Source: Escherichia phage vB_EcoM_H12
Length of the DNA stretch: 64,000 bases
Strand: one strand, 5' to 3'
Sequence record: PP952733.1
The notes beneath the pieces are model-generated. The model saw nothing but the letters and a program-made list of their open reading frames with translations. It searched no databases and had not been told where the DNA came from. Below are positions 48,130 to 63,284 of the stretch, one piece after another. Positions within the stretch are counted from its first letter, which is position 1; every line of letters begins with the position of its first letter. The position numbers and the translations under genes are program-made.

Positions 48130-48144
48130 AAGTATATGATAAGA

Positions 48145-48166: not shown

Positions 48167-48182
48167 ATTTCTGGAGAATGCT

Positions 48183-49026: not shown

Positions 49027-49054
49027 TTTAACAGTAAACTAAGAGGAAAGTATT

Positions 49055-51421
49055 ATGCGCATGGTAAATGACCACGCAGAAGTGATTAAGAGTTCAACTT
49101 CTTTGGAGACGTCTCAAGCACAGATTACAATGACACCTGAAATGTTCAGCCTTTTGAGTTCTGGTGTATATACCTTTAAAGAAAGGGCAGTTATCCGTGA
49201 ACTGTCATGTAACGCAGTAGATGCTCAGAAAGAAGCTGGAAAAGAGAACATCCCGTTCCATGTGCATTTACCTACTCGTTTTGAGCCTTACTTTGAAGTT
49301 CGTGATTTTGGAACTGGATTGACTCATGATAAAGTTATGAGTTTGTATCTAAATTACGGGGCTTCTACGAAGAATGACTCTAATGATTACATTGGTGCAA
49401 TGGGTATCGGTTCAAAATCTCCATTTGCAATCGCTCAGTCATTCACAGTATCTAGCTATGTTGATGGTGTTGTTAATAAGTACTCTGTTTACCTTGAGAA
49501 TGGTATCCCTCAAGTAACTAAGCTGACCACCAACCCAACAAAAGAGCCTAATGGTTTAGCTGTACGTGTAGCAGTTGCTGACCATCGTATTTCAAAGTTC
49601 TTTGAAGAAGCTGGTCATGTATACTCATACTTTGCTGTAAAACCAGAAAGTAACATCGAGTATGACGATGTATTAGCAGATATGAATGTCATTGCCCGTG
49701 AAGAAGGTGTTTATGATGCCATGATTCACAAACAAAGCTGGCGTTCTAGTGGTAACAGGACAGAGTTTAATGTAGTGATGGGTAACATTGCCTACCCTGT
49801 TAATATGGAAGCATTACTTGGTGATGATTTCTTCAAAGTATTGCCAGAATTTTTCCGTAGGAGCGTAGACCTTGTAAACATCTACATGCCTATTGGTTCA
49901 GTTGCTATTGCAGCTTCTCGTGAAGCATTGCAGATGAATGACACGACAAAAAATGTTATCATCGAAGCTACTAAAAAGATAACTGAAGCAATTACAAAGG
50001 ATGTTATCAAGAAAGTTAATAGCCAACCTACACTCATGGATGCTGCACAGGCTTATGCTGAGTTGCGTTTGAACTCACGAGAGATGTTTAATGCTGTGTG
50101 TCCAAAGCTAGAGTGGGGAGGCGTTAAGCTTGATTCTCTGGAAGAAGAATTACTAAACATTCGTCGTGGAATTATCTACGCAGAAGATGGCTCAGTCATC
50201 TATGAACGTGATGGTAAAGGTAATATTAAAGTTGATAGGAATGGAAACAACATCCCTAAAGTAGATTATCTTTATAATCCTGTTGCTTATGTTAAGTTCA
50301 ACTCTTTAGAGAGTAAGATTCGTGCAACATCGCTTTCCTACACTCAAGAGGCAAGTATGTTCAATATCTTTGGCGCAATGCGTAAAAGCCAAATTGAACA
50401 GTTTTTGTTTGTTATCAATGACCGTCGCAATAAAAACGGTACTGAGAAAACTGTAGGACGCAACCAGATTCTGCGTGGTGCATGTCGAGACTATGCCAGC
50501 GAGTCAAGTCTGTTTCACAGATACAATGGTATTGTCTTTGTATTCTCTACTGAGAAAGAGCTAGATGATTTAATCAATCTGCACAAACTTGATAAAAGCT
50601 TGTTAAAGATTGTGAAGATGTCTGATAAGGAACATCATTATCAGCGTAAAGAAGCTGTGAGAGGTGTTGTAAAACTCTGGAAAGCTGTTCCAGCAGAAGG
50701 TGTAGCTTCATACAAAGAGGTGTCAGAAGACTTTGATACAATTGAAGAGCCTCAGCTTTACATCAAGGCAGTCGGTGACACAGTTGATGGTGAATGTTTT
50801 TGCTCATCTCCAGAAGATGTAGCTAAGTCAGTTGCTAATGTTACAGGTAAGACAATCTATGTTTTCCGAAAAGCAAATTGGAAAAAGATACCAGAAGACT
50901 GGATTGAAGTAGATGAGAAGCTCTTGAACGACAGCTTAACTGATGTTCACTGGATTAATCACAACAGGTATATGACACGTATCTATATGAATGGTGTCCT
51001 TGACCTTACAAGCAGTTGGATTATTGCCAGAAACTTTACGTTCAATAACAGGAAGATTTCTCGTGGTTATTGCTATTCACGAGACACAAATAAAACTATC
51101 TTCTTAGAAGGCAATGAAGATGCTGTTGAGGCAATGTTTGGTAAAATCCAATACGTTGCTGCACCGTTTGCATACACTTACACCGTTAGTCGGTTGCAAA
51201 CTTTGAAAGAATGCCTTGACAACGATACAAAGCTGTACAAGAAAATTAAGAAAGCTGGTGACCGTATGGTTATTAAGGTGACAAACTATCTTTTAAAAAG
51301 AAAACAAGAAAACTTCTTGCTTTCTCATTTAGATTGGAATAAAGTGTCACCCATCGAAGTGAGTAAGTTCTTAGGCTTTGATGTGAAGTGTGTTCCAGAA
51401 GGGACTACAATTTACGATTAA
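49055..51421 (+). CDS. rIIA: rIIA-like protein (GHKL-type ATPase domain)
   Basis: 788 aa; N-terminal RELSCNAVDAQ ... VRDFGTGL ... GIGSKSPF matches the T4 rIIA N-terminus as recalled; followed by rIIB-sized gene. Confidence 0.75.
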   Translation: MRMVNDHAEVIKSSTSLETSQAQITMTPEMFSLLSSGVYTFKERAVIRELSCNAVDAQKEAGKENIPFHVHLPTRFEPYFEVRDFGTGLTHDKVMSLYLNYGASTKNDSNDYIGAMGIGSKSPFAIAQSFTVSSYVDGVVNKYSVYLENGIPQVTKLTTNPTKEPNGLAVRVAVADHRISKFFEEAGHVYSYFAVKPESNIEYDDVLADMNVIAREEGVYDAMIHKQSWRSSGNRTEFNVVMGNIAYPVNMEALLGDDFFKVLPEFFRRSVDLVNIYMPIGSVAIAASREALQMNDTTKNVIIEATKKITEAITKDVIKKVNSQPTLMDAAQAYAELRLNSREMFNAVCPKLEWGGVKLDSLEEELLNIRRGIIYAEDGSVIYERDGKGNIKVDRNGNNIPKVDYLYNPVAYVKFNSLESKIRATSLSYTQEASMFNIFGAMRKSQIEQFLFVINDRRNKNGTEKTVGRNQILRGACRDYASESSLFHRYNGIVFVFSTEKELDDLINLHKLDKSLLKIVKMSDKEHHYQRKEAVRGVVKLWKAVPAEGVASYKEVSEDFDTIEEPQLYIKAVGDTVDGECFCSSPEDVAKSVANVTGKTIYVFRKANWKKIPEDWIEVDEKLLNDSLTDVHWINHNRYMTRIYMNGVLDLTSSWIIARNFTFNNRKISRGYCYSRDTNKTIFLEGNEDAVEAMFGKIQYVAAPFAYTYTVSRLQTLKECLDNDTKLYKKIKKAGDRMVIKVTNYLLKRKQENFLLSHLDWNKVSPIEVSKFLGFDVKCVPEGTTIYD

Positions 51422-51426
51422 AGTGT

Positions 51427-51456
51427 TTGACAAGGGGCTTTGAAGCCCCTTAGAAT
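51427..51456 (+). promoter_or_regulatory. sigma70-like promoter with hairpin in the spacer
   Basis: TTGACA, 17-18 nt spacer that is itself GGGGCTTTGAAGCCCC, then TAGAAT. Confidence 0.5.
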
Positions 51457-51501
51457 AACCTCACAAAAATGATTTATTAACTAACAAGAGAGAGTAATAA
51501 G

Positions 51502-52611
51502 ATGACTACTAAAACTAAAGCACAGATTGACGCAGAAATCTACAAACTGGTTAAAGAAGGTAAGCTGACTAAAACAGCTATTGCACAGAAGTTCAATACT
51601 TCAACCCGTTCAGTCGGTCGTGCTGTAGAGCGTCATGAAGCAACCTTAAAAGGTAAGAAAAAGGTAGCTTCTAAACCAGTTAAGAAGACTCTAAAGCAAG
51701 TTGCTAAGTCAGTTAAAAAGAAAGCTGGCAAACCAGTTGAAAAGGTTGTTAAAGAGGCTGTACAGAAAGCTCCAGTAAATAAACTGCATGAAGCTATGCA
51801 GAAAGATGACAAGATTGAGTATATGATTACTGGTGACTCTGTAATTATGACTTACGGTTCAGAGTCTGAAATTGTTGAGTCTACTCATCCGAACTATCAA
51901 GAAATTGTAGTTCATGTTGTGAAAGGTGAGTTCAAGAAAGCATTTGAACTGATGAACATTCGTAAGTCTATCGAAAACTTCACTCAGGGTGCTATCACAA
52001 TCAAAGGTGACAAGTTATTCTACGGTGCTGTTGAGATGCGTTCTACTCTGGTTGACCGTATTCTTCACATGATGAAGACTGGTGATAAAGGCTTTGAACG
52101 ACTTGTAATGTTCTTCGAAAAACTGATGGAAAACCCATCTAAAGACTCTGTAGAACAGCTTTGGGGATTTGTATCTCACCTTGATGTTGAAATTGATGAA
52201 GAAGGCTACATCATTGGTTGGAAGAAAGTCTCTACTCGTGAAGGCAAGTTGGTTGACTCCCACACCTACAAAGTACCTAATGATTTGGGTAACATTGTAG
52301 AAATGCCACGTTGGATGGTTGATAACAACCGTAACGTAACTTGCTCTCAGGGTCTTCATGTTGGTGCTTGGGATTATGTTCGTTGCTTCTCAGGTGATAC
52401 AATCCTGAAGGTTCGTGTCCATCCACGAGATGTTGTATCTGTTCCGACTGATTACAACGATATGAAGATGCGTTCATCCCGTTATGAAGTTGCAGCAATC
52501 GTTGATAATCAACGTAAAGTGTTGAAAGCATGGGACGGTAAGACTGAAGCTTTGCATGTCATCGTTGGCACTGCTGGTGAACTAATCTCCCAACGTAAAC
52601 GTGAAATCTAA
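51502..52611 (+). CDS. rIIB: rIIB-like protein
   Basis: 369 aa; Lys-rich N-terminal region; directly downstream of rIIA-like gene. Confidence 0.5.
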   Translation: MTTKTKAQIDAEIYKLVKEGKLTKTAIAQKFNTSTRSVGRAVERHEATLKGKKKVASKPVKKTLKQVAKSVKKKAGKPVEKVVKEAVQKAPVNKLHEAMQKDDKIEYMITGDSVIMTYGSESEIVESTHPNYQEIVVHVVKGEFKKAFELMNIRKSIENFTQGAITIKGDKLFYGAVEMRSTLVDRILHMMKTGDKGFERLVMFFEKLMENPSKDSVEQLWGFVSHLDVEIDEEGYIIGWKKVSTREGKLVDSHTYKVPNDLGNIVEMPRWMVDNNRNVTCSQGLHVGAWDYVRCFSGDTILKVRVHPRDVVSVPTDYNDMKMRSSRYEVAAIVDNQRKVLKAWDGKTEALHVIVGTAGELISQRKREI

Positions 52612-52627
52612 TAAGTAATTTCTTAAA

Positions 52628-52650
52628 AGGCTGCTTCGGCGGCCTTTTTT
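52628..52650 (+). terminator. intrinsic terminator after rIIB
   Basis: GGCTGC-TTCG-GCGGCC then TTTTTT. Confidence 0.6.
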
Positions 52651-52711
52651 ATTTGTATTTTGTGCAGAGTGCTGTATAATTGTGGTCACGATAAACTAAA
52701 CAGGAGAACCA

Positions 52712-53260
52712 ATGAAGAAGTTGATTCTAGGTTTGTGCTTAATGTTTACAGCACACTTATCTTATGCAGTTGACTGCCCAGAGCTATCAATTAGCCAAAA
52801 AGTAAACATGTTAAAAGCTTACCAGTATGGTGAGAATAATATGGGTAAAGGTTGGGGTATCACTCTAGCTGCTATAGCCTTACAAGAGTCAGAGTTAGGT
52901 CTGAATGTAGAGAATAAAAAGACACATGACTATGGTATTTTCCAGAATCACTTGAAGACTGTTGTAAAGCGTAACAAAATTAGTCCTAATGTGGCTAAAA
53001 AGAAACTCTTAAAAGATTTTGACTATGCCGCAAAAGAAACACACAAAGAGCTTGAGTTTTGGACGAAGGTACATGGTCAACCAAAGTCAAAGAAGACTTT
53101 ACAAAAAGTTTTAGCGTCATATAATGCTGGGTATTCGTACAAAATCCCTAAAGCTAAGAAATACTCTCAAGATGTCTACAACAATATGAAAGTTATTGCT
53201 CAATGTGAATTTGCAACAAACATTTCTAAGGTAAACCATGAAAAAATTAAGAAAGTCTGA
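52712..53260 (+). CDS. secreted lytic transglycosylase (candidate endolysin)
   Basis: Sec-type signal peptide (cleavage near SYA/VD); AIALQESELG resembles the catalytic Glu-Ser motif of SLT-type transglycosylases. Confidence 0.6.
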   Translation: MKKLILGLCLMFTAHLSYAVDCPELSISQKVNMLKAYQYGENNMGKGWGITLAAIALQESELGLNVENKKTHDYGIFQNHLKTVVKRNKISPNVAKKKLLKDFDYAAKETHKELEFWTKVHGQPKSKKTLQKVLASYNAGYSYKIPKAKKYSQDVYNNMKVIAQCEFATNISKVNHEKIKKV

Positions 53261-53933
53261 TGAAGTACTGTGTCATGCTTATGACTTACATCCTCATGAG
53301 TTAGGTCTTGATTCCTGTGTATGGACCCCAGAACAGTGCAGAGATTTTGAAGATACTGCAAGAGAAGTTGTATGTTCACTTGAAGAGTTCCACACATCAG
53401 AACCAATTGTGAACGTTGTGGACAAAGGGACTGGACAATCTATAGGTGTAAGACGTGACAGTTTAGTCATAGTCAATAAAGACCTTGTAGAAAAAGGCAA
53501 CCTTATCTTAGCAGACATTGATGGTGTTCTTACAAATTTTAATCACGAAGATTGCTCAACAGAATTGATTGATGGGTCATTTTCACAGTACACTAATTTG
53601 CTTGACTCTGTAAGAGCAAAACCAACGTATGTTTTCAATATTATTGATGCAATTGCTAACCATGCTGCCATTGGACTCTTGACAGCGAGGGGTGAATCTC
53701 AGAGAATACCTACTGAGATGTTTTTAAGGCATTACATAGAGCATGATTACATGCTTTTCATGCGTGGTTTTGGAACTAACTCTATAAGTGCAGAAAGTTT
53801 AAAAGTTAGGATGATTCAGTCTTGCATTCTTCCTTACTTTAATATAGTATGCTTTATAGAAGATACAGAGAAGAATGTTCAGAAGGTAAACAGAATCCTT
53901 CCACACATTAAAACCATGTTAGTTAAACATTGA
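53238..53933 (+). CDS. HAD-superfamily hydrolase-like protein
   Basis: LILADIDGVLTN matches HAD motif I (DxDGx). Confidence 0.4.
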   Translation: MKKLRKSDEVLCHAYDLHPHELGLDSCVWTPEQCRDFEDTAREVVCSLEEFHTSEPIVNVVDKGTGQSIGVRRDSLVIVNKDLVEKGNLILADIDGVLTNFNHEDCSTELIDGSFSQYTNLLDSVRAKPTYVFNIIDAIANHAAIGLLTARGESQRIPTEMFLRHYIEHDYMLFMRGFGTNSISAESLKVRMIQSCILPYFNIVCFIEDTEKNVQKVNRILPHIKTMLVKH

Positions 53934-54409
53934 GAGAAAAACTTATGAACAATATCATTACGGTAGCACTGGACGATACGGCAAACAAATCTGAAGTAGT
54001 TCGTAAAATGATTCAAGGTAACTTTGAAGGTAAAATTTTCCGTGCTGTTAATGTAAAAGCTGATGGCAGCATTCGTGAATATCGTGCATTGTTGAATGTT
54101 AAAAAGCACGTAAAAGGTGCTGGTTCAACGACTGCACACAAAGAAAACCTGATGACTATCTACGATATGGGTAAGGCTTCAGAGTTAGGTGCTGAAGGTA
54201 TCGTTAAAGAAGGTGCTCCGTATCGCTCTTTCAATCTGGAAACTACTCTTATGCTTTCCTTTACAAGTGGTTCTAAAACAATCACTTATCTCTTTACTGA
54301 TGCTGCAACGGTATCTGCTATTAAGGATAGCACTGTCAAAGCTGGCGTAGTTGCTGCTGCAAAAGCTTCTTCGATGGCTGCAAATATCCTTGCTAAAGTC
54401 CTCGGTTAA
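53930..54409 (+). CDS. hypothetical protein
   Basis: 159 aa; followed by strong terminator. Confidence 0.35.
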   Translation: MREKLMNNIITVALDDTANKSEVVRKMIQGNFEGKIFRAVNVKADGSIREYRALLNVKKHVKGAGSTTAHKENLMTIYDMGKASELGAEGIVKEGAPYRSFNLETTLMLSFTSGSKTITYLFTDAATVSAIKDSTVKAGVVAAAKASSMAANILAKVLG

Positions 54410-54421
54410 GGTTAAGATACA

Positions 54422-54443
54422 GGCTCCTTCGGGAGCCTTTTTC
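54422..54443 (+). terminator. intrinsic terminator
   Basis: GGCTCC-TTCG-GGAGCC then TTTTT. Confidence 0.65.
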
Positions 54444-54461
54444 ATTTCAGGAGATTGTTAA

Positions 54462-54809
54462 ATGACATTTAAAGAGTTCTGCCAAGCTACTTTCATAATT
54501 GTTTTCTTAGTTGGAGCAGGTGTCTGGGGAGGATACTCTTACAGAGACTACCAAGTTGCTGAAGCTGAGCTAAATAATGAGAGACTAATAAGTGTTGCCA
54601 AAGATGCTTATCAGGAAGGTTTAGCCACACTCAGCGCCAATTACAAAAATGATTTGAAAGATGTGCTTGCTAAGAATAAGCACACAAAAGAGGTACTAAC
54701 GTATGAAAAGACTAAGCCAGAGTTTTATAATGTTTGTGTTACTGATAATTATGTCAGGGTGTTCAACGAACAAAGTGAACAGTACATTCAAAAACTCCCA
54801 AGTAAGTGA
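54462..54809 (+). CDS. inner-membrane spanin (Rz-like)
   Basis: N-terminal TM helix (FIIVFLVGAGVWGGYSY), coiled-coil periplasmic domain; Rz1-like ORF embedded. Confidence 0.5.
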   Translation: MTFKEFCQATFIIVFLVGAGVWGGYSYRDYQVAEAELNNERLISVAKDAYQEGLATLSANYKNDLKDVLAKNKHTKEVLTYEKTKPEFYNVCVTDNYVRVFNEQSEQYIQKLPSK

Positions 54810-54972
54810 GAGTGACAAGTACACTCAAGAAGAGTCAAGATTCACTATCAAAGGTAATACTGGTAGTGATGTGGCAGCAGCCCTTGAGTTTTATCGTGAT
54901 GGTTTTTACCAGTGCACAATCAAAGCTAATAACCTTATTGATATGATTTTATTAGGAAACAAACAGCAATGA
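54703..54972 (+). CDS. outer-membrane lipoprotein spanin (Rz1-like)
   Basis: Lipoprotein signal with lipobox IMSGC; starts inside the Rz-like gene in another frame. Confidence 0.5.
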   Translation: MKRLSQSFIMFVLLIIMSGCSTNKVNSTFKNSQVSESDKYTQEESRFTIKGNTGSDVAAALEFYRDGFYQCTIKANNLIDMILLGNKQQ

Positions 54973-55238
54973 CAGAGAATGAAGACACTTTCTATGTAGA
55001 AGGTTACTTACTGCTACCACGACCAAAAGAAACTTATATGCGGGTTGATTTCTCACCAACCATTATGGATAACGTGATGTGTCATATCTTTATGCAAGGT
55101 GTCACAGCACAGCTTAAGCATGTTGGTAAAGAGTGCAAAATAAAGGTTGACACTCATCCAGAAATCAAAGAGAATCACTACACATGGTTCTTACCAGACT
55201 ATAAAGAAATCTTAGCAGTTCTTAAAACGAGGAAATGA
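54969..55238 (+). CDS. hypothetical protein
   Basis: 89 aa, coupled. Confidence 0.3.
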   Translation: MTENEDTFYVEGYLLLPRPKETYMRVDFSPTIMDNVMCHIFMQGVTAQLKHVGKECKIKVDTHPEIKENHYTWFLPDYKEILAVLKTRK

Positions 55239-55549
55239 TTATGCAATTCCAGCCAACAAATCGTGGATTTTCTTATGCAGAATTTAAAGATGCTAAAGGG
55301 GAAATTTGTACTTTACAAGAGAGTTCATCATATGAACCATGTATCTGGTTAGGTGCTAAAGAGGTCTCTGTTCAGTACCTAGATGGTGGCTGGAAAACAC
55401 TTGATATCCCAGCATTAGTAGGCAAAGATTTTGTAGGTAACCAAAGAATGAAACTCAACCAAGAACAGGTGAAAGAGTTATTACCATACCTTCAGTACTT
55501 TGCTGAAAATGGTGAATTACCAACAGAGGAACTTACAAATGCAGATTAA
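55235..55549 (+). CDS. hypothetical protein
   Basis: 104 aa, coupled. Confidence 0.3.
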   Translation: MIMQFQPTNRGFSYAEFKDAKGEICTLQESSSYEPCIWLGAKEVSVQYLDGGWKTLDIPALVGKDFVGNQRMKLNQEQVKELLPYLQYFAENGELPTEELTNAD

Positions 55550-55865
55550 TGGAAGAGACTTTGTAGCCGTTTACTACGAGAACGATAAAGAAGTTGGCGT
55601 AGCACAAGTATCTTATGGTAATGGTAAGTGGTTGTATGGGACAGTCGCAGTAGTCGGAACAAGAAGTGATACAAAAACTTTTAAAGATTGTGTTGACCTT
55701 CTTGAAGAATCCATACACAATCATTGGTGTCTGATATGGATGACTGACAACGAAGTGATAGAACGCTTCAAAAAGATTGGTATCAACATAGACAGCATTG
55801 AGCATGTTGACTTGTATGAACTGACTGAGAAGGTAAATTATGAGAGTAATTCTAGCCAGAGATAA
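55539..55865 (+). CDS. hypothetical protein
   Basis: Track ORF begins at TTG 55500; ATG at 55539 with GAGG 10 nt upstream is the likelier start. Confidence 0.3.
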   Translation: MQINGRDFVAVYYENDKEVGVAQVSYGNGKWLYGTVAVVGTRSDTKTFKDCVDLLEESIHNHWCLIWMTDNEVIERFKKIGINIDSIEHVDLYELTEKVNYESNSSQR

Positions 55866-56067
55866 AAAGACACGGAAAATTATCCGGTCAGCAGTATTCA
55901 TTGGAAGAAATAAAGTGATTCCATTTACAGCAAACGATGTGATAGCCTACAGGGAAAAATTAGCATTTAGTTATTGCTTGCGTGGCTTCATCTCACAACC
56001 ATTGGAAGACTTCAAAAGTCGTTGTGGTAAAGGCATCATCATTCAAGAGGCAATTATCAATGGCTGA
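55840..56067 (+). CDS. hypothetical protein
   Basis: 75 aa; stop overlaps next start (ATGGCTGA). Confidence 0.3.
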   Translation: MRVILARDKKTRKIIRSAVFIGRNKVIPFTANDVIAYREKLAFSYCLRGFISQPLEDFKSRCGKGIIIQEAIING

Positions 56068-56260
56068 CTTCTGCAAAGATTGTTCTATAGAAATGTTTGG
56101 ACGTGATACAGGTGACTTAAAAGGTCTTATCACTGAAGATGACTTTAAAGCTGGCTATGCAATGCCAGTAATCTGTGAAGGTTGTGGATGTATCTGGGTA
56201 GACCACGAAGGACAACGTGTAAAACCTTCAGAAGATAAAGAATCTTGGGAGAGATGTTAA
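56060..56260 (+). CDS. small zinc-ribbon protein
   Basis: CKDC ... CEGCGC; track ORF 55982 trimmed to in-frame ATG at 56060. Confidence 0.3.
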   Translation: MADFCKDCSIEMFGRDTGDLKGLITEDDFKAGYAMPVICEGCGCIWVDHEGQRVKPSEDKESWERC

Positions 56261-57046
56261 ATGGGTATTGTAAAAATCATCAATGGGGATATCTTCTCAG
56301 CATTTGATAAAGGTAAGTTTGATGTTATTGGTCACGGTTGCAACTGTATGAATTTAATGGGTGCAGGTATCGCTGACAAGATTTCTAAACTTTATCCAAA
56401 AGCATATGAGACCGATACAGAAGTTTATCTGTATGCAGGTGGAATAGGCCACAAACCTTGTGAAAATTTACTAGGGAATTTCTCTGTAGCACGTTTAGAA
56501 CAAGGCCGTATAGCTAACCTTTACACTCAGCTTAAGACTGGTAAAGATGCCCGATACAGTGCTTTAGAGTCATCTTTGAAACAACTTAACAGATACTGTG
56601 AAGTCAATCAGTTGAAGAAAGTTGGGTTACCTATGATTGGTGCAGGTATCGGTGGACTAGACCCTCAAGCCGTCGCAGTTATCATTAATCAGGTGATGAA
56701 GAGTGTAGATGTGTATCTGTATGTCTACGAAGGCGAGATGTACCACAAGTTACGCTCAGGTTGGAAGAACTACTGTGAACCAGAATACTTTGCAGGTGTA
56801 GTAATGTTCACAGATGATACAGTTACCCTCTTCAGACGAAGAAAAGGTAAGATACATCAAAGTAACCCTCCGGTTGAGAAGATGTCTCTAAGTAACGCTC
56901 TAGTTACCCACCTGTCGAAGAGCAATCACAGAATTGCAGTAACATTTGGCAGTGATGCAGACGCTTACATCTATGCAAGAACTGATGAGGATATTGATAC
57001 AGTTTTCTCTTCACCGGAAGTAACCTTCTTAGACGCAAAGAACTAA
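56261..57046 (+). CDS. macro-domain protein (ADP-ribose binding / processing)
   Basis: N-terminal GDI ... DVIGHGCNCMNLMGAGIADKI and later VGLPMIGAGIGGLDPQAV align with macro-domain motifs (compare E. coli YmdB, as recalled). Confidence 0.7.
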   Translation: MGIVKIINGDIFSAFDKGKFDVIGHGCNCMNLMGAGIADKISKLYPKAYETDTEVYLYAGGIGHKPCENLLGNFSVARLEQGRIANLYTQLKTGKDARYSALESSLKQLNRYCEVNQLKKVGLPMIGAGIGGLDPQAVAVIINQVMKSVDVYLYVYEGEMYHKLRSGWKNYCEPEYFAGVVMFTDDTVTLFRRRKGKIHQSNPPVEKMSLSNALVTHLSKSNHRIAVTFGSDADAYIYARTDEDIDTVFSSPEVTFLDAKN

Positions 57047-57109
57047 GAAACTCTGTAGAATATTCACAATAGACTAAGCCTTTCTTATCTGGTAAATTTT
57101 TCAGGTAAG

Positions 57110-57302
57110 GAGGGCTTTTTCATTTTAGGATTGTGCAGGTAGAGTTCTGTATAGAAATCTGTAGAGAAAATTTTGAACTCCAAAGAGAAAATTCATTTTC
57201 AAACTGTGCAGGTAATCTCCAAAGAGCTTTTTCATTTTCAAAACGTGCAGACCCCGCTCAGGTCGGGCAAGAAAAATCATTTTAGAATTGTGCAGGTAGG
57301 TG
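57110..57302. repeat. degenerate direct repeats (4 copies) in ~500 bp non-coding region
   Basis: Four copies of (A/T)TCATTTT(A/C)(A/G)(A/G)A(A/C/T)(T/C)GTGCAG(G/A)(T/C), two preceded by CTCCAAAGAG. Confidence 0.55.
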
Positions 57303-57473
57303 GGTACAGGTGGGGATGTCGCCATTTCTCACAAGGCTACCACATCTGGAAATAAAAGTCAACATAAAAATTTGTAGAGGATTGAAAAATAATTCTTGAT
57401 TGTAGTTCTGTTTTGTGGTAGTCGCGTGCGCCCGTTTCATTACAGTTTTTGCAAAAATATTTTTAAAAATTTT

Positions 57474-57502
57474 CTTGACTCTTTGAACGTGGTTATCTAA
57501 TA
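57474..57502 (+). promoter_or_regulatory. sigma70-like promoter, first unit of small-gene array
   Basis: TTGACT-N17-TAATAT. Confidence 0.55.
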
Positions 57503-57555
57503 TTTGCATCAGACGGGGCGACAAGCTCAACAACCTTAAACTAGGAGATTCAAAA

Positions 57556-57936
57556 ATGGCATATCGTGCACCTAAATTCATCAACAAAGACAACTTTCGC
57601 AACACACTGGAGAAGTCACTTGATGAAAATTTTAAAGGTAACATTATCGTTGTTCACGCATTCAATTTTAAGTATGATGTAAACGGGAATAGAATCAACC
57701 ATTACACGGCAACCATGTTAGATGGTACGCTATCAAGTGAAAAAGCTGTACTGAATGCACTTGCTGGACGCGGTAAAAACCTGATAAAATGTGATAAGAG
57801 ACGTTATCAGGGTGGCGCATATGGTTATGATGATGCTGTTTACCATCTTGAAAATATGGGCTATTCAGTAGAGAAAGCTGGAGCGTCTCAAATAATCGGT
57901 AGTGATGGTTATGTGACAATTTTCAAAATTAACTGA
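57556..57936 (+). CDS. small-gene array: hypothetical protein
   Basis: 126 aa; conserved leader CTAGGAGATTCAAAAATG. Confidence 0.45.
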   Translation: MAYRAPKFINKDNFRNTLEKSLDENFKGNIIVVHAFNFKYDVNGNRINHYTATMLDGTLSSEKAVLNALAGRGKNLIKCDKRRYQGGAYGYDDAVYHLENMGYSVEKAGASQIIGSDGYVTIFKIN

Positions 57937-57940
57937 TAAA

Positions 57941-58024
57941 GTACTTTACAAGGGGCTTATAGTTCGATAAAGTAAGCCCCAGATAAAGAGCTTTATCACT
58001 CAATCCTAAATTGGAGATTCTAAG
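57941..58024 (+). repeat. type-1 intergenic element (hairpin + conserved box + leader)
   Basis: ACTTTACA, hairpin GGGGCTTA/TAAGCCCC (57952-57980), AGATAAAGAGCTTTATCAC box. Confidence 0.55.
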
Positions 58025-58318
58025 ATGGCTATTATCAAAAACGTTGTAATTACTGCAAAAACTCGTGATGATGCTCGCGTTATGGCTAAAAAGTTATGCG
58101 GGAAAGTGATTGACAACGGAAAACAATCTGCTGTAAGATGGGGCGTGAAGACTGATAAACAGTTGAAGCTAAAAAATTCACCAATAAACCTTTTTACATG
58201 TGTAAACACTATCGGGAAGACAAATGTATACACGAAAAAGGCATATATCAGACGCGTAGCCATGACATCACCTATTCGCACAATGAGAAGTCATGCAAAG
58301 CTGAAAATTAATCGTTAA
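58025..58318 (+). CDS. small-gene array: basic hypothetical protein
   Basis: 97 aa; conserved leader. Confidence 0.45.
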   Translation: MAIIKNVVITAKTRDDARVMAKKLCGKVIDNGKQSAVRWGVKTDKQLKLKNSPINLFTCVNTIGKTNVYTKKAYIRRVAMTSPIRTMRSHAKLKINR

Positions 58319-58320
58319 AG

Positions 58321-58404
58321 TACTTTACAGGGGCTTGAAAGCTGATATCTTAAACCCCAGATAAAGAGCTTTACCACTCAATCCTTAAACTAGGAGATTC
58401 AAAA
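58321..58404 (+). repeat. type-1 intergenic element
   Basis: ACTTTACA, imperfect hairpin with AAGCTGATA loop, AGATAAAGAGCTTTACCAC box. Confidence 0.5.
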
Positions 58405-58917
58405 ATGAAAACTGTAGACGCTACCTTTGAAGTTGTAAAAGAAAAATTCACCATTATTTATGAAGCTGTTAATTGCTTTGAAGCAAGCCATAACCTTGAT
58501 AATTGGGAGTTTACAGATGACCATCAAGGCGGCGTGACTATTAAAAACCCCAACTGTCAGCGTAATGATTTTAAATATGCAATCCCTTTACATTACAGCC
58601 TTAAACAGCTTTCAAGTGACTATGCAAAACAAGGCCGGGAAAATCCATCAAAAGAGGCTTACATAAGCTTACAGAAAGAACTAGAAAGAGATTTAGAGGC
58701 TTCAGAATACAACCTTGCCGCGAAAGTTGTCGATGCAAATGGTCAAACAATTTTAGATAGTTTTTATATTGGTTACGCTTTCGATTGGTGCTATAGTGAC
58801 GGCGATGATTTAGAGGATAGACTAAAAGAAGAGGTGAGCAATTCAGACGCAGAATCTGAAGTATTAGAACGCTTGGAAGCATTAAAAGATTCAGTGATGA
58901 ATATCTTTAAGAACTAA
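58405..58917 (+). CDS. small-gene array: acidic hypothetical protein
   Basis: 170 aa; conserved leader. Confidence 0.45.
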   Translation: MKTVDATFEVVKEKFTIIYEAVNCFEASHNLDNWEFTDDHQGGVTIKNPNCQRNDFKYAIPLHYSLKQLSSDYAKQGRENPSKEAYISLQKELERDLEASEYNLAAKVVDANGQTILDSFYIGYAFDWCYSDGDDLEDRLKEEVSNSDAESEVLERLEALKDSVMNIFKN

Positions 58918-58920
58918 ATA

Positions 58921-59004
58921 GATTTCTTTACACGGGGCTATCAAGCTGATAAGATAGCCCCAGATAAAGAGATTTATCAACTATCCTAAACTGGAGATTC
59001 AAAA
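58921..59004 (+). repeat. type-1 intergenic element
   Basis: CTTTACA, hairpin GGGGCTATC/GATAGCCCC with AAGCTGATA loop, AGATAAAGAG box. Confidence 0.55.
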
Positions 59005-59301
59005 ATGAAATTATCAAATAAAGTCCGTGAAAATCTAAGCAAGTTACTCAACAAAATTGATTTTATCGAGACATCAAGGAATAGTCATGATGTTATGGAA
59101 TGGTTACACGGAAAAATCAAAGGCCGTCGTGTAGTGATTTGCTTATGGAATAGTTGCAGGGAATATAAAAAACCTGTATTACAAGTCAATATCTATGATG
59201 ATACTTTTAAAAGCCCTGTAAAGTCTAAAAGTGATTTATTAGAATCCTATGAGATAACTGTAAATGGCAAAGTATCACGTAAAGAGGAAACACCATGTTA
59301 A
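59005..59301 (+). CDS. small-gene array: hypothetical protein
   Basis: 98 aa; conserved leader. Confidence 0.45.
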   Translation: MKLSNKVRENLSKLLNKIDFIETSRNSHDVMEWLHGKIKGRRVVICLWNSCREYKKPVLQVNIYDDTFKSPVKSKSDLLESYEITVNGKVSRKEETPC

Positions 59302-59627
59302 TGACTGGTATCACTGCAATCATTGCCATTTTCGCGCTATATAAGGCATATAAAGCCTATAATCTAGCAAATAAGGCAATCACACAGCAGGTTAGCAATA
59401 GCCTTGTAGAAAGCTTTCTAGGGCGTCTCAGTGATGAGCAAATAAAGCGGTTAGAAATGAGCTTCAGATTCAAAGCGAAAACCTATCAGATAAGTGACAT
59501 CTTCAAGGATGATTTTCAGCTTGTCGATGATTATAACTCTCTGATAAATGCTTTAAATATCAGTGATTTAAAAGATTATCATGCTGTAATAGTTCAAGAA
59601 TTGAGCAAACGAAAAAATTCCTCTTGA
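59295..59627 (+). CDS. small-gene array: membrane-anchored hypothetical protein
   Basis: 110 aa; N-terminal TM helix; coupled to upstream gene. Confidence 0.4.
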   Translation: MLMTGITAIIAIFALYKAYKAYNLANKAITQQVSNSLVESFLGRLSDEQIKRLEMSFRFKAKTYQISDIFKDDFQLVDDYNSLINALNISDLKDYHAVIVQELSKRKNSS

Positions 59628-59652
59628 TTTTGGTTTTTAAAACAAGTAAATT
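59624..59652 (+). promoter_or_regulatory. type-2 promoter
   Basis: TTGATT-N17-TAAATT; then 5' hairpin GGGAGG-GATAA-CCTCCC (59663-59679). Confidence 0.55.
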
Positions 59653-59714
59653 ACTAATCAACGGGAGGGATAACCTCCCTACTAAGTAAAGTCCTTAAAC
59701 TAGGAGATTCAAAA

Positions 59715-59987
59715 ATGTACACTACTAACAACGGTCGCACTTTAAACGTAACCCTGCGCCACTATGTGAACGGTGTAATGCACTTCGAGGATTTACAAGC
59801 TGAACAACATATACTAGATTGGCAACTTGCAGGACTCCAAAAAACTGCTACCGGATACGGGAAAAAGATTCCAACTAGCTGGAAAGTATACTACGAAGGA
59901 CGTTTGCGCAGAATTTATCAAGATGTATGCAGCAATAGCGCATCAAGTTACATCATGGTAAAGGGTAAAAAATTACACTTAGCATAA
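59715..59987 (+). CDS. small-gene array: hypothetical protein
   Basis: 90 aa; conserved leader. Confidence 0.45.
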   Translation: MYTTNNGRTLNVTLRHYVNGVMHFEDLQAEQHILDWQLAGLQKTATGYGKKIPTSWKVYYEGRLRRIYQDVCSNSASSYIMVKGKKLHLA

Positions 59988-60072
59988 AGTACTTTACAAG
60001 GGGCTTATAGTTCGATAAAGTAAGCCCCAGATAAAGAGCTTTATCACTCAATCCTAAATTGGAGATTCTAAA
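59988..60072 (+). repeat. type-1 intergenic element (near-identical to 57941-58024)
   Basis: Same ACTTTACA-hairpin-AGATAAAGAG sequence. Confidence 0.55.
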
Positions 60073-60477
60073 ATGGCTATTAATAATCGTGAGTTATCAA
60101 TCTTAAAAGCACGTTTGACCGTTAACCGGATTAATGTTATTACGTCATCAGCACCGGATGAGACATTGCACAACATTATCGGGAAGATTCAAAGTGTTAT
60201 CTTAGACGTTGAAAACGTAAAAAATTCATTAGCTGACGTTGCAGCAGGTATCACGCTAGACGGTGCACAATATGAAATGGCTGACATGTTAGGCAAATCT
60301 AAGGTAATGAATAAAGAGCTTGATTTAAAAATGTTCCGCTTTGCCGTGAAAGTGTGGCTATCTGTCGAGTATGACGCAAATTTTGCAATCGCTGACTTTT
60401 TCGCAACATGGTTGCAACGTAATTTAACAAATCATGATTTCCGTGATATCTGCGACGTAATTTACGCAGAACTTTAA
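60073..60477 (+). CDS. small-gene array: hypothetical protein
   Basis: 134 aa; conserved leader. Confidence 0.45.
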   Translation: MAINNRELSILKARLTVNRINVITSSAPDETLHNIIGKIQSVILDVENVKNSLADVAAGITLDGAQYEMADMLGKSKVMNKELDLKMFRFAVKVWLSVEYDANFAIADFFATWLQRNLTNHDFRDICDVIYAEL

Positions 60478-60487
60478 AAATTTCTCT

Positions 60488-60516
60488 TGATTTTGGTTTT
60501 TAAAACAAGTAAATTA
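60488..60516 (+). promoter_or_regulatory. type-2 promoter
   Basis: TTGATT-N17-TAAATT plus GGGAGG/CCTCCC 5' hairpin; near-identical to 59611-59714. Confidence 0.55.
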
Positions 60517-60577
60517 CTAATCAACGGGAGGGATAACCTCCCTACTAAGTAAAGTCCTTAAACTAGGAGATTCAAAA

Positions 60578-60778
60578 ATGGCTATTATTAACGGCTTAAA
60601 CATTGAAACTACTCACATCAAAGATATCAAAGTTGGTGATATAGTCCTTTTTCACGGCGTAGAAAAAACTGTTACTTCAAAGGATATCAAAGAGGACTCT
60701 TTCATGGGCCGGTCTCTCTTCGGTGATTCTTATTGCTTAGGTTACCGCGCAGTTTTAAAAGTTGTCAAAAATAACTGA
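60578..60778 (+). CDS. small-gene array: hypothetical protein
   Basis: 66 aa; conserved leader. Confidence 0.4.
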   Translation: MAIINGLNIETTHIKDIKVGDIVLFHGVEKTVTSKDIKEDSFMGRSLFGDSYCLGYRAVLKVVKNN

Positions 60779-60780
60779 TA

Positions 60781-60866
60781 AAGTACTTTACAGGGGGCTT
60801 AAAAGCTGATATCTTAAGCCCCAGATAAAGAGCTTTACCACATTAATCCTAAACTGGAGATTCAAA
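60781..60866 (+). repeat. type-1 intergenic element
   Basis: ACTTTACA, hairpin GGGGCTTAA/TTAAGCCCC with AAGCTGATA loop, AGATAAAGAG box. Confidence 0.55.
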
Positions 60867-61409
60867 ATGAAATGCTTTCACGGTACTACTCAAGAAAACT
60901 TCGTCAACCTGATTAATAACGGTGATAAACCATCAGGCGCATGGAATTGTTCTGATATGGATGGGAATTTCTACGTTTATCCAGAAAATAAAATCTATGT
61001 CGACGATGAGGAAGAAATAATCTCTGAAGGCATTCAACAAGCTTTAGGCAATGCCACTATAACGGCAGCTTTTCAGATGAAAACTCAAAACATTGTTATC
61101 TTGGAACTTGATATCCCAGAGGATGAGTTGAATGATGATTATTCTTGTGATAATATGTCGAGCGTGGCAAGTTTTACAGAGTATTTCGATATAAGCTGGA
61201 TTAAAAAGGTTTATATCACTGAATTTAATGCTATGTTTTCACCTTTTTGTCTTCCTTCACTGGATAACCCGAACTTAAACTATCTTGATGAGTCTCTGGA
61301 ACTTCTCGCTAAAAGTGTTCAACAATCAGACAGTATTCAGGTTTTTTGTGACATCATGGATACACTAACAGGAAACATCATAGAAAGTGATTTGAAGAGC
61401 TTTTTATAA
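60867..61409 (+). CDS. small-gene array: acidic hypothetical protein
   Basis: 180 aa; conserved leader variant. Confidence 0.45.
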   Translation: MKCFHGTTQENFVNLINNGDKPSGAWNCSDMDGNFYVYPENKIYVDDEEEIISEGIQQALGNATITAAFQMKTQNIVILELDIPEDELNDDYSCDNMSSVASFTEYFDISWIKKVYITEFNAMFSPFCLPSLDNPNLNYLDESLELLAKSVQQSDSIQVFCDIMDTLTGNIIESDLKSFL

Positions 61410-61441
61410 AAACCTATGCAATCACCCTATAAACACTGATT

Positions 61442-61462
61442 AGCCCCTCACAGGGGCTTTTA
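61442..61462 (+). terminator. probable intrinsic terminator
   Basis: AGCCCC-TCACA-GGGGCT then TTTT. Confidence 0.45.
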
Positions 61463-61475
61463 GGAGGCTTTAATC

Positions 61476-61709
61476 ATGCTTACAACCATTTACCTCATCC
61501 TTTCTATTTGTAATGGTCATTCATGCGATTTTAAAGGGCTTGAGGAGTTTACAGGGAGTAAAGAAAATGCTATTCAAGTTTGCCAGATAGCAAGACAAGA
61601 CTACCCCGCCAGTGATGATATACAATGCTACTTCAAAACAGAAGATAATGACGGCGTTTATTTTGATAGTGTCGATGGTCAATATGAAATTATCATTGAA
61701 AAAGACTAG
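61476..61709 (+). CDS. small-gene array: hypothetical protein (possible signal peptide)
   Basis: 77 aa; hydrophobic N-terminus; AGGAGG RBS. Confidence 0.4.
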   Translation: MLTTIYLILSICNGHSCDFKGLEEFTGSKENAIQVCQIARQDYPASDDIQCYFKTEDNDGVYFDSVDGQYEIIIEKD

Positions 61710-61735
61710 ACAAGCCTGATAAAAGTCTGTAAATT
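61707..61735 (+). promoter_or_regulatory. type-2 promoter
   Basis: TAGACA-N17-TAAATT then GGGGAGGGAATGACCTTCCCC hairpin. Confidence 0.5.
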
Positions 61736-61800
61736 ACTAATCAACGGGGAGGGAATGACCTTCCCCACTAAATAAAGTCCTTAAACTAGGAGATTCAAAA

Positions 61801-62142
61801 ATGGCTTATGTAACCGTAATTACCGACAAGGCTGGCTCATCTTGGTCAACTCAAGTAAGCGATAAGATGACACCTATGCAGTGCCTAAAATACTTTGAGC
61901 AGTGGAATAAAGGCGAGGATGTCAGCCCCTTTCAAGTCATGCAGATTATCCATACAGATAACGAAGGGAATAAAACTGTTTTGAATAGTGAGTACTACGC
62001 AACCCGATTTGAAACGAGATGTAAAGCAATGAAGCTCTTGCGTGAGTCTGGCTATTCTCATATTGCCTCACTAATCTGGGATGACCTTCTAAAAAATCAG
62101 CGTATCAGCTATGTAAAACCTGAAAAAATATTCATCAGTTAA
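61801..62142 (+). CDS. small-gene array: hypothetical protein
   Basis: 113 aa; conserved leader. Confidence 0.45.
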   Translation: MAYVTVITDKAGSSWSTQVSDKMTPMQCLKYFEQWNKGEDVSPFQVMQIIHTDNEGNKTVLNSEYYATRFETRCKAMKLLRESGYSHIASLIWDDLLKNQRISYVKPEKIFIS

Positions 62143-62270
62143 TCAATAACTTACAAAAAACTTTTAAAAAAGTGTTGACAATACCCCTTGACATTGGTAA
62201 CTTTGTTCGAGGGGGTTTATCTAAAAGGATTCACTTAAAAGATTCTTTATAGATAAACTTAAAAAATTGC

Positions 62271-62299
62271 TTGCAAAGACAAATCAAATCAAGTAAATT
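62271..62299 (+). promoter_or_regulatory. type-2 promoter
   Basis: TTGCAA-N17-TAAATT then GGGGGA-TGACC-TCCCCC hairpin. Confidence 0.55.
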
Positions 62300-62360
62300 A
62301 CTAATCAACGGGGGATGACCTCCCCCACTAAATAAAGTCCTTAAACTAGGAGATTCTAAA

Positions 62361-62891
62361 ATGAACAAGTTTAAAGCTATCAATTACATCCGCTCAAATA
62401 GTGTTATGTCAAAACCTGTTAAAGATACCTACGAATTTCGTTGCAATGGTGTACACTTTGCAACAATCACCAAATCAGAAAACGGAGCTTATTACATTCA
62501 TCGCCGTAATGTTGCAACCGTTGTTGTCTCTCACTTTATGCAAGCTGTCGCGGAACTTCTCCCGATGTTTTTAGGGCTTTACTTGGATGAGTGTAAAAAC
62601 GTTCACAATCACGTTAAAAACCTTTTAAATAGCTATAAAATGGCTTATGAACGTTCTATCAAGTCATTGAACAAGTTTTACAACGCACCTGAAAATACTG
62701 TATCAATAGCTTATGACGTAAGCGGTGAAATGGTAAACTTATCCAATGTGGAAGAAATCAAGCTGCATGATTTACGCCCTAGCGGTGACTCTAAGACTCT
62801 CGGTGAAGGTTTAACGTTCAATATCAAGAACTTAGAGAAAACTTTAAAAGATATTGAAAAAGATATTGACGAGACAACCAAAAATCTGTAA
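62361..62891 (+). CDS. small-gene array: hypothetical protein
   Basis: 176 aa; conserved leader. Confidence 0.45.
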   Translation: MNKFKAINYIRSNSVMSKPVKDTYEFRCNGVHFATITKSENGAYYIHRRNVATVVVSHFMQAVAELLPMFLGLYLDECKNVHNHVKNLLNSYKMAYERSIKSLNKFYNAPENTVSIAYDVSGEMVNLSNVEEIKLHDLRPSGDSKTLGEGLTFNIKNLEKTLKDIEKDIDETTKNL

Positions 62892-62894
62892 ATT
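62866..62894 (+). promoter_or_regulatory. type-2 promoter (inside the 3' end of the upstream gene)
   Basis: TTGACG-N17-TAAATT then GGGGAGGGAATGACCTTCCC hairpin. Confidence 0.5.
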
Positions 62895-62956
62895 GTCAAT
62901 CAACGGGGAGGGAATGACCTTCCCACTAAGTAAAGTCCTAAACTGGAGTTATCAAG

Positions 62957-63220: not shown

Positions 63221-63223
63221 ATT
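63195..63223 (+). promoter_or_regulatory. type-2 promoter (inside the 3' end of the upstream gene)
   Basis: TTGCAA-N17-TAAATT then GGGGGA-TGACC-TCCCCC hairpin. Confidence 0.55.
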
Positions 63224-63284
63224 ACTAATCAACGGGGGATGACCTCCCCCACTAAATAAAGTCCTTAAACTAGGAGATTCAAAA

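Follow-up and report, generated by a model that had tools for sequence, protein, structure and literature searches.

A macrodomain protein with an orphan C-terminal domain in the Felixounavirus vB_EcoM_H12 and its predicted ADP-ribose chemistry

Escherichia phage vB_EcoM_H12 (PP952733.1) encodes a 261-residue protein in which a macrodomain, predicted to be an active hydrolase, is followed by an orphan C-terminal domain. We analyzed a stretch of 64,000 nucleotides of this phage (the window), a FelixO1-like myovirus of the genus Felixounavirus with 90-95% nucleotide identity to more than 200 Felixounavirus records. The two-domain gene lies at 56261-57046 on the plus strand, as defined by its open reading frame (ORF) translation, its PHROG_335 match, and its orthologues in Bas63 and FelixO1. 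The ATG-start ORF spans exactly the interval given in an initial annotation made from the sequence alone, and the strings quoted there (NGDIF, FDVIGHGCNC, MGAGIADKI, and LPMIGAGIGGLDP) are all found in the translation. For the macrodomain, we tentatively favor a role like that of T4 Tk.4 (AdfM), in which ADP-ribose would be removed from DNA, over an Adpp-like feeding of the NAD+-reconstitution pathway NARP1; the two roles are not exclusive. What is new in the protein is its C-terminal domain.

The protein is 97% identical to bas63_0095 (gp95, ‘putative phosphatase’) of phage JohannRWettstein (Bas63). The FelixO1 counterpart, ORF13, is annotated as ‘phosphatase; hypothetical 17.5 kDa protein in tk-vs intergenic region’, so the homology of the gene to T4 Tk.4 has long been recognized. 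PhageMaP, in which Bas63 knock-outs were set against 33 defenses, and HIDEN-SEQ contain nothing on the Ounavirinae macro gene.

The macro fold was supported by profile and structure searches. The Pfam profile Macro (PF01661) matched residues 25-141 at 33.1 bits (E 5.8e-8) over profile positions 2-117 of 118, above the curated gathering cut-off of 22 bits. PHROG_335 (‘phosphatase’) aligned over residues 1-260 with profile positions 53-312 of 422 (E 5.8e-112). The AlphaFold2 model of the whole protein, built with 31 homologues, has a mean predicted local distance difference test (pLDDT) score of 92.5 and a predicted template modeling (pTM) score of 0.89, and its fold is the three-layer α/β/α macro fold. 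Foldseek matched the model to PDB entries with a probability of 1.00 for TARG1 (template modeling score, TMt, 0.86), Thermus aquaticus DarG (0.84), BT1257 (0.82), Mycobacterium tuberculosis DarG (0.78), and yeast Poa1p (0.77). The initial annotation had called a macrodomain and named a macro fold by structure prediction as the check on it; the call is borne out, with TARG1, DarG, and Poa1p rather than MacroD leading the matches. Its extent needs revision. The annotation had ascribed macrodomain motifs to the 261-residue protein; the macrodomain covers residues ~1-157 (56261-56731, plus strand), and residues ~158-261 form a separate β-rich domain that the annotation had not mentioned.

By Pfam, Foldseek, and blastp evidence, the macrodomain falls into the Poa1p/Tk.4 (AdfM)/Adpp subfamily of the TARG1-DarG ‘ALC1-like’ class. 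Macrodomains of the Poa1p/Tk.4 type are a known phage family, recently (2025-26) characterized, for which two jobs have been reported, protection from DarTG2 and hydrolysis of ADP-ribose-1''-phosphate (ADPR-1''-P) as a phosphatase. In HIDEN-SEQ, tk.4 was the one gene of T4 found to be required on DarTG2 hosts and was named AdfM (anti-DarT factor Macrodomain), and a clean T4 tk.4 knock-out was DarTG2-sensitive (10.1101/2025.11.20.689424). The second job concerns aRES, which converts NAD+ to nicotinamide and ADPR-1''-P, a product unusable by NARP1 (Osterman et al., 10.64898/2026.01.28.702374). In about 15% of NARP1 phages, a locus no more than two genes from the operon encodes Adpp, a macro protein of the Poa1p-like kind, and the Adpp of Vibrio phage Gary (KNV71_gp137) converts ADPR-1''-P to ADP-ribose (ADPR), which feeds the NARP1 enzymes Adps and Namat (10.64898/2026.01.28.702374). 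That study screened only two genes on either side of NARP1, and its Table S1 holds no Escherichia, Salmonella, or Felix phage (10.64898/2026.01.28.702374); the Felixounavirus macro gene is missing from the table because it lies too distant from NARP1 to count.

The nearest characterized relative by sequence is Tk.4 (T2 orthologue, 33.8% identity, 82 bits), and a tblastn search of the window protein against T-even phages gave E ~1e-15. Further blastp scores of the window macrodomain were 76 bits to the NARP1-adjacent macro of PAK_P1, 69 to phiPsa374, 65 to phiAbaA1, 64 to ventosus, 54 to Gary Adpp, and 47 to TARG1. With 27-36% identity to the NARP1-adjacent macros, the protein is about equidistant from Tk.4 and from the Adpp/NARP1-adjacent group (82 vs 54-76 bits). 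Among NCBIfam and PADLOC models, DarG was the sole significant match. The NCBIfam model NF048014 scored 47.3 bits, far under its equivalog cut-off of 250, and aligned only at profile positions 12-153 of 338, the macro half; the PADLOC model scored 47.8 bits. In a neighbor-joining tree of macrodomains with 300 bootstraps, the two-domain proteins form their own clade (71% bootstrap).

Three motifs make up the predicted active site. H25-G-C-N28-C...M33-G-A-G36-I-A38 (56333-56374, plus strand) holds the catalytic His/Asn and phosphate-binding loop 1 according to the alignments. N86-L-Y-T-Q90, followed by the short loop LKTGKDARY (56516-56557, plus strand), and P124-M-I-G127-A-G129-I130-G-G132, phosphate-binding loop 2 (56630-56656, plus strand), are placed by the family and TARG1 alignments. 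Across 31-32 homologues, H25, G26, N28, C29, M33, G36, A38, P46, D52, and G72 are invariant, as are N86-L-Y-T-Q90, P124, G127, G129, and I130. The initial annotation took HGCNC as the mark of a divergent subfamily. This does not hold, as H-x-C-N-C is an invariant hallmark of the family, present as HGCNC in Tk.4 (T2/T4), HQCNC in Vibrio-phage Adpp, and HSCNC in yeast Poa1p. By these alignments, the hallmark of the Poa1p/Tk.4 subfamily is H-x-C-N-C together with N-L-Y-T-Q and P-x-I-G-A-G-I.

The residues also line up with those studied in relatives. H25 corresponds to Adpp H24 (the H24A construct) and Poa1p H23 (the H23A structure 6lfs), and N28 corresponds to PhiKZ AdfM N23 (the N23A mutant). 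In the phmmer alignment to TARG1, the K84/D125 dyad is replaced by Q90/G131. Q90 thus occupies the position of TARG1 K84, of K80 in the T. aquaticus and M. tuberculosis DarG proteins, and of SCO6735 Q85, the last equivalence being drawn through the TARG1 alignment and not from a direct alignment to SCO6735; the search with Tk.4 reached the SCO6735 structure 5e3b (E 3e-4), and the search with the window protein gave no match to it at E<=10. Because Q90 stands where the lysine would be, we rejected the TARG1-type and DarG-type lysine mechanisms. The retained Gly-rich loops (G34-A-G36 and G127-A-G129-I-G-G) and N28 suggest binding or hydrolysis of an ADP-ribose derivative. All residues important in the relatives are kept, and we therefore predict that the 261-residue protein is an active macro hydrolase acting at C1'' of the distal ribose.

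The loop after the glutamine distinguishes the reported groups. It has 8 residues in both the window protein (QLKTGKDARY) and Tk.4 (QFQPGPNFEY). In all of the 100+ listed NARP1-adjacent macros the loop is longer, ‘Q[YKL]x[YWF]’, with an aromatic residue at Q+3, for example QYNYG, QYHWH, QYDYR, and QKYYG. Table S1 of the aRES study has 103 ‘YGQY’ entries, whereas NLYTQ occurs in only 2, both of them ‘NLYTQYTFW’. The use of the long aromatic loop as a NARP1-adjacent marker is an observation of the present analysis and follows no published criterion.

Compared with the characterized relatives, the window protein shares with Tk.4 homology over the whole macrodomain, HGCNC, NLYTQ, P-x-IGAGIG, and the short loop after the glutamine, and both are encoded by non-structural phage genes. 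Tk.4 is a single domain of 155 residues, whereas the window protein adds an orphan domain of ~100 residues, and protection from DarTG2 has been demonstrated in T4 alone. NARP1 is found in the present phage; the T4 genome is not known to carry it. Adpp is likewise a Poa1p-like macro protein with the conserved catalytic His and Gln in a NARP1-carrying phage. It differs in its HQ[AC]NC and N[LV]YGQ motifs, its extended aromatic loop, its single domain, and its location within two genes of the NARP1 operon; the window gene has the short loop and the C-terminal domain and stands 8.1 kb away in another transcription unit.

DarG gave the best NCBIfam/PADLOC match (TMt 0.78-0.84 for its structures), shares the active-site Asn, and likewise consists of a macrodomain and then a second domain. 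It is set apart by the score (47 vs 250 bits), by the catalytic Lys in place of Gln90, and by its DarT-binding half, which the window C-terminal domain does not resemble. SCO6735 of Streptomyces coelicolor is an ALC1-like macro protein that hydrolyses thymidine-linked ADP-ribose on DNA, and its Q85A mutant is inactive (PMC9411070). It has no Lys/Asp dyad and depends on a Gln in the corresponding place, which sets a precedent for action on DarT products by an enzyme of the Gln type; it differs in being bacterial and DNA-damage-regulated, in its longer Lys-bearing mobile loop, and in its weak sequence match, which is to Tk.4. The ADPR-1''-P phosphatase Poa1p (PDB 6LFQ/6LFR) resembles the window protein in fold, in the catalytic His of H-x-C-N-C, and in ADP-ribose binding, but it is a eukaryotic enzyme of tRNA-splicing by-product metabolism with Ser for Gln (‘FTSS’ strand end) and no C-terminal domain. 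Human TARG1 (OARD1) gave the top match among solved structures (phmmer E 2e-5), and its His, H32, is in the same position as that of the window protein; it differs by the K84/D125 dyad and is a eukaryotic protein-Glu/Asp ADP-ribose hydrolase.

In the AdfM-like role that we favor, the pocket would be formed by H25, N28, Q90, and the two Gly-rich phosphate loops, with Gln90 in place of the TARG1/DarG lysine as in SCO6735, and the chemistry would be hydrolysis of the substituent at C1'' of the distal ribose of ADP-ribose. The gene, which closes its operon in the non-structural and probably early region, inside a block of probable counter-defense genes, would supply an enzyme that removes DarT2-type ADP-ribose from thymidines of phage single-stranded DNA and thereby restores replication. 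The freed ADP-ribose could be returned to NAD+ by the NARP1 enzymes of the phage itself, and the C-terminal domain may serve to target the enzyme or to bind a partner (DNA, toxin, or another protein). By analogy, this role is consistent with the motifs and short loop common to Tk.4 and with the DarTG2 sensitivity of the T4 tk.4 knock-out. It is likewise consistent with DarG as the only significant family match, with the T. aquaticus and M. tuberculosis DarG structures among the top matches, and with the Gln precedent of SCO6735. The macro gene lies outside the NARP1 operon, and no NARP1 lies within 10 kb of those nearest single-domain relatives that are on long contigs. The replacement of alleles described below, as expected of an arms-race gene, and the counter-defense block add to this support. 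The idea of the initial annotation that the protein could reverse DNA ADP-ribosylation by DarT has a homologue precedent in T4 Tk.4/AdfM (~34% identical).

Several points weigh against the AdfM-like role. The evidence for T4 AdfM is genetic, and the removal of ADP-ribose from DNA was inferred by its authors (10.1101/2025.11.20.689424). PhiKZ gp104, independently named ‘AdfM’, strips DarT2 ADP-ribose from DNA in vitro (PMC13309987). This biochemically proven anti-DarT2 phage macro protein is only distant kin, with a blastp score of 25 bits to the window macrodomain; it is a lysine-type (K-type), DarG-like protein that scores 133 bits to the DarG model vs 48 for the window protein. The score of the PAK_P1 NARP1-adjacent macro is nearly equal to that of Tk.4, and in the tree the two-domain clade is nested in a loose ‘TQ-type’ group that holds Tk.4 together with the NARP1-adjacent phiAbaA1 and LAh_6. 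The deep nodes of the tree have bootstrap values of 14-24%, for which reason we rejected an assignment of subfamily or substrate by phylogeny. NARP1 strictly co-occurs with the gene in every lineage examined, which fits the Adpp-like role, and the C-terminal domain is not consistently positive in charge, a property that might have hinted at DNA binding. A full-text literature search found no study of this gene or any Ounavirinae orthologue. The sequence analyses do not separate AdfM-like from Adpp-like activity. Both reactions break the C1'' bond with the same conserved residues, and therefore a dual activity is plausible.

The Adpp-like role is possible, and we rate it below the AdfM-like one. 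Under this explanation the macro protein would act as a ‘NARP1-AP in trans’, converting the aRES product ADPR-1''-P to ADP-ribose, from which Adps and Namat encoded 8 kb upstream would make NAD+, and it would extend NARP1 to defenses otherwise beyond its reach. The membership in one Poa1p-like family, the shared catalytic His (H25, Adpp H24, Poa1p H23), the ADPR-bound Poa1p structure among the top structural matches, and the identity to NARP1-adjacent macros speak for it. The NARP1 of the window is orthologous to the characterized Bas63 pathway, and the order of NARP1 and the two-domain gene (9-10 kb apart) is kept even where the macro proteins share 34-41% identity. Record counts are close, with 242 phage records having the C-terminal domain vs 260 having a Namat of at least 60% identity. 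The two-gene range of the aRES study would miss the Felixounavirus case, and aRES is found in E. coli, Klebsiella, and Enterobacter. The release of ADP-ribose for the Prs-like/Nampt-like pair, which the initial annotation had proposed, has by analogy a close precedent in Vibrio-phage Adpp. On the other side, 13-15 genes and one or more strong terminators stand between the macro gene and NARP1; the protein has no extended aromatic loop of the kind found in all NARP1-adjacent macros, and it is closer to Tk.4 of T4, a phage not known to have NARP1. Adpp proteins are single-domain, and the co-occurrence may reflect shared Ounavirinae ancestry; it could be functional or merely inherited.

The other explanations have less in their favor. 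That the protein erases another ADP-ribose adduct or signal is improbable; the candidates would be mono-ADP-ribose on protein or RNA, as made by CmdT-type mRNA ADP-ribosyltransferases (ARTs) or a phage ART, and 1''-linked cyclic ADP-ribose (cADPR) signals of Thoeris, which would be opened to linear ADPR. TARG1 and viral Mac1, both among the matches, act on protein or nucleic-acid ADP-ribose, and phage RyDEP linearizes 2'/3'cADPR to feed NARP1, so that a niche exists. Yet no relative in the subfamily is known to act in this way, the Bas63 screen against 33 defense systems did not flag g95, and no ART was found nearby by sequence, the gp107-like ORF (60867-61409) having no Pfam or PDB support. 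Nothing in our analysis supports the action on ADPR-based signals suggested in the initial annotation. A housekeeping role in RNA repair or metabolism, disposing of ADPR-1''-P or Appr>p from a Tpt1-type 2'-phosphotransferase as in the native role of Poa1p, seems highly improbable to us. The Poa1p-like sequence, a polynucleotide kinase gene 2.3 kb upstream, and many tRNAs, judging by the Bas63 annotation, would suit it, as would the slight similarity of gp107 to Tpt1 seen by PhageMaP. So would P0027, a metagenomic relative of 339 residues in which a macrodomain of this subfamily is joined to a cREC_REC ‘cyclic-phosphate processing receiver’ domain (PF20274, 30.8 bits); by this architecture the subfamily is tied to chemistry of the cyclic-phosphate/ADPR-1''-P type. 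At the sequence level, however, the gp107-like ORF has no Tpt1/ART signal, and the swapping of alleles fits conflict better; T4-type RNA repair is known to leave no 2'-phosphate. An O-acetyl-ADP-ribose deacetylase or RNase III regulator of the YmdB/MacroD type is scarcely credible. This label is attached to the gene in some GenBank records (D1-2, C600M2, and HMD-P8) through the automatic rule HAMAP MF_01205. We rejected it, as the MacroD/YmdB-type NCBIfam model NF001666 scored 12.8 bits vs a cut-off of 246, MacroD structures are absent among the leading Foldseek matches, where TARG1, DarG, and Poa1p are nearest, and the motifs are H-x-C-N-C and NLYTQ, not N-x6-GGGVD.

The C-terminal domain was modeled with residues ~158-261 forming a linker helix, a six-strand β-rich domain, and a terminal helix. 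The linker helix (residues 158-167) and the β-rich domain (residues ~170-250) are encoded at 56732-57043 on the plus strand, and the domain is an orphan confined to Ounavirinae-type phages. Its pLDDT is ~86-94 in the full-length model and 76.5 (core ~74-88) when the domain is modeled by itself; the high pTM of the full model suggests that it would be packed in a fixed position on the macrodomain. We found no match among solved folds, only the SUSP2 orthologue in BFVD, and only orthologues among 1.84 billion representative proteins. A 14-sequence profile of the domain found nothing further in 5.8 billion proteins or the PDB, and in DarG profiles the domain had no counterpart in the DarT-binding C-terminal half. 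The 242 records that carry it are, by name, nearly all enterobacterial Ounavirinae (Felixounavirus and Moogle-group Citrobacter phages), and 2 of the 242 are named as Campylobacter and Staphylococcus phages. Among distant homologues, the domain diverges 2-3x faster than the macrodomain (15-23% vs 38-52% identity). Conserved positions are the linker motif N170-x-S-x-P174-x-x-F177-D-G179 and a few others such as Y236, and the net charge ranges from -4 to +5. Binding of a partner or toxin and targeting of the substrate are candidate roles.

The evolution of the gene was followed in seven Felixounavirus alleles. The ratio of nonsynonymous to synonymous substitution rates (dN/dS) was 0.077 for codons 1-160 (macrodomain) and 0.214 for codons 161-261 (C-terminal domain), indicating purifying selection on both; Namat gave 0.043 for comparison (three sequences). 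Over 45632-55846 the window shares 91-95.5% identity with L004, a Felixounavirus contig from a metagenome, and past the gene, over 57099-57486, it shares ~84%. The upstream 66-residue protein of L004 is 100% identical, and the first ~47 macro codons are common to both. From there, window 56404-57098 and L004 10144-10837 have no nucleotide similarity, and the L004 product (P0009) shares 41% identity with the window protein. Thirteen sequenced phage records have the P0009 allele; VpaE1_ev035 is one of them, but VpaE1 carries the allele of the window type. Such mosaicism confined to the macro gene would be typical of genes in host-phage conflict.

The NARP1 pair consists of Adps (Prs-like, 45421-46302) and Namat (Nampt-like, 46348-48129), together 45421-48129 on the plus strand, as assigned by Pfam (Pribosyltran/Pribosyl_synth and NAPRTase/NAMPT_N, respectively) and by identity to Bas63. 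Adps is 81% identical to Bas63 gp79 and Namat 98% to gp80, the experimentally characterized pair with which the NARP1 pathway was discovered. The pair is a candidate partner in function for the macro protein. The difference between the adjacent genes suggests mosaicism within the NARP1 operon too. The ORF lister started Adps at TTG 45400, and the alignment to Bas63 gp79 begins at ATG 45421 (293 residues). The initial annotation had placed a Prs-like/Nampt-like pair about 8 kb upstream of the macro gene, and the pair is real, with the end of Namat 8.1 kb from the macro start and 14 intervening genes in Bas63. The order Adps-Namat-rIIA-rIIB-...-macro is conserved for three distant two-domain homologues with identities of 41%, 34%, and 36%, and in each the macro gene is 9-10 kb from Namat. 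Bas63 g77, g79/80, and g84/85 each counter a defense system in PhageMaP, and the block from NARP1 to the macro gene, which also contains rIIA/rIIB-like, polynucleotide kinase, and spanin genes, is probably a one-strand run of counter-defense genes.

Unlikely as a whole is a two-pronged hub in which the macrodomain strips 1''-linked ADP-ribose from DarT-modified DNA and/or dephosphorylates ADPR-1''-P, the unlinked NARP1 recycles the product, and the orphan domain is a new module that binds a host immune protein (DarT or a RES effector) or targets the substrate. Such a hub would combine enzymatic and stoichiometric action, as DarG does, but through an unrelated fold. Bas63, the phage of the NARP1 discovery, would then have an overlooked ‘NARP1-AP’ that acts in trans, and immune evasion would involve a new protein fold. 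About 250 sequenced phages have the gene, and many of these phages are candidates for therapy. By sequence, the Felixounavirus protein stands between the two reported macro roles, and it bears on whether one macrodomain serves both. If NARP1 accessory enzymes act from unlinked loci, the fraction of NARP1 phages able to beat aRES would be well above the reported 15%.

The macro gene is the last of a packed eight-ORF unit (54462-57046, plus strand) of spanins, four small ORFs, a Cys-rich ORF, and the macro gene, defined by overlapping or abutting ORFs, flanking hairpins, and the Bas63 annotation. Terminator-like hairpins were found at both ends by a pattern scan (54421-54438 and 57076-57117). 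The latter, on the plus strand 30 nt past the macro stop, resembles an intrinsic terminator with a 17-bp stem and a T-run by pattern scan and RNA folding (free energy -25.8 kcal/mol, z -7.62); 0 of 200 shuffles were as stable. The initial annotation had put the gene at the head of a small-gene region. The region exists, but its cassette-driven small genes start past this terminator, and the macro gene closes the preceding unit. The 66-residue Cys-rich ORF (56060-56260, plus strand; CxxC...CxxC, zinc-ribbon-like) has a stop abutting the macro ATG (junction TGTTAAATGG), and the two are probably translationally coupled. It belongs to PHROG_2210 (E 2.8e-41, function unknown), has a dN/dS of 0.054, and is annotated in D1-2, FelixO1, and Bas63. 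In a distant contig (L005) the ORF abutting the macro gene encodes a different 63-residue CxxC...CxxC protein, and in another (L006) the abutting ORF is not Cys-rich. No darT was seen among the annotated or Pfam-scanned neighbors; five preceding ORFs of the operon had no Pfam match, the i-spanin ORF being unscanned, and the small genes downstream are annotated as hypothetical proteins.

Other features of the neighborhood were noted. The rIIA-like (788 residues) and rIIB (PF26926, 369 residues) genes lie at 49055-52611, and the polynucleotide-kinase-like gene lies at 53238-53933. A single-domain relative of the macro protein (P0026, contig L014) is encoded directly after rIIA/rIIB-like genes. 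The 180-residue ORF at 60867-61409, which starts with MKCFHGT, is the Bas63 gp107 orthologue and a member of PHROG_3303 (function unknown). In PhageMaP, the structure of Bas63 gp107 was described as slightly similar to the NAD-binding domain of RNA 2'-phosphotransferase (Tpt1). Sequence searches of Pfam and the PDB gave no support for the ORF as an ADP-ribosyltransferase/Tpt1 ‘writer’, and we rejected that reading; should it nevertheless be an NAD+-using transferase, its products could be substrates of the macro enzyme.

Gene content 3' of the macro gene varies among Felixounaviruses, as seen from window 57047-58500 against 14048-15433 of Salmonella phage D1-2 (L001); a 3.5-kb window query stretches over 5.6 kb in D1-2. 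Extra small ORFs are annotated there in D1-2, DE7, SWJM-02, and Bas63, some of them on the opposite strand in Bas63. Beyond the terminator, a 509-nt non-coding gap holds four copies of a ~28-34-nt motif (TTTTCATTTTnnnAnTGTGCAG) at 57111-57295 with spacings of 73, 39, and 45 nt. The first copy is conserved in L004, and the repeats may be protein-binding or regulatory sites. The RNA structure of the repeat-bearing spacer (57105-57345) was unremarkable (z 0.38), and an Rfam scan of the whole window gave no match. Each of the downstream small genes (57925-63300) is preceded by one of two repeated cassettes, TTTACA-GGGGCTT...AAGCCCC-AGATAAAGAGCTTTAYCAC...CCTAAAYTGGAGATTCAAAAATG or GTAAATTACTAATCAACGGGGG...CCCCC-ACTAAATAAAGTCCTTAAACTAGGAGATTCAAAAATG, and both combine a promoter-like element, a GC hairpin, and a fixed Shine-Dalgarno/start context. 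Copies lie, for example, at 57936-58034, 59984-60082, and 60778-60876, and at 59646-59717, 60509-60580, 61732-61803, 62292-62363, and 63216-63287.

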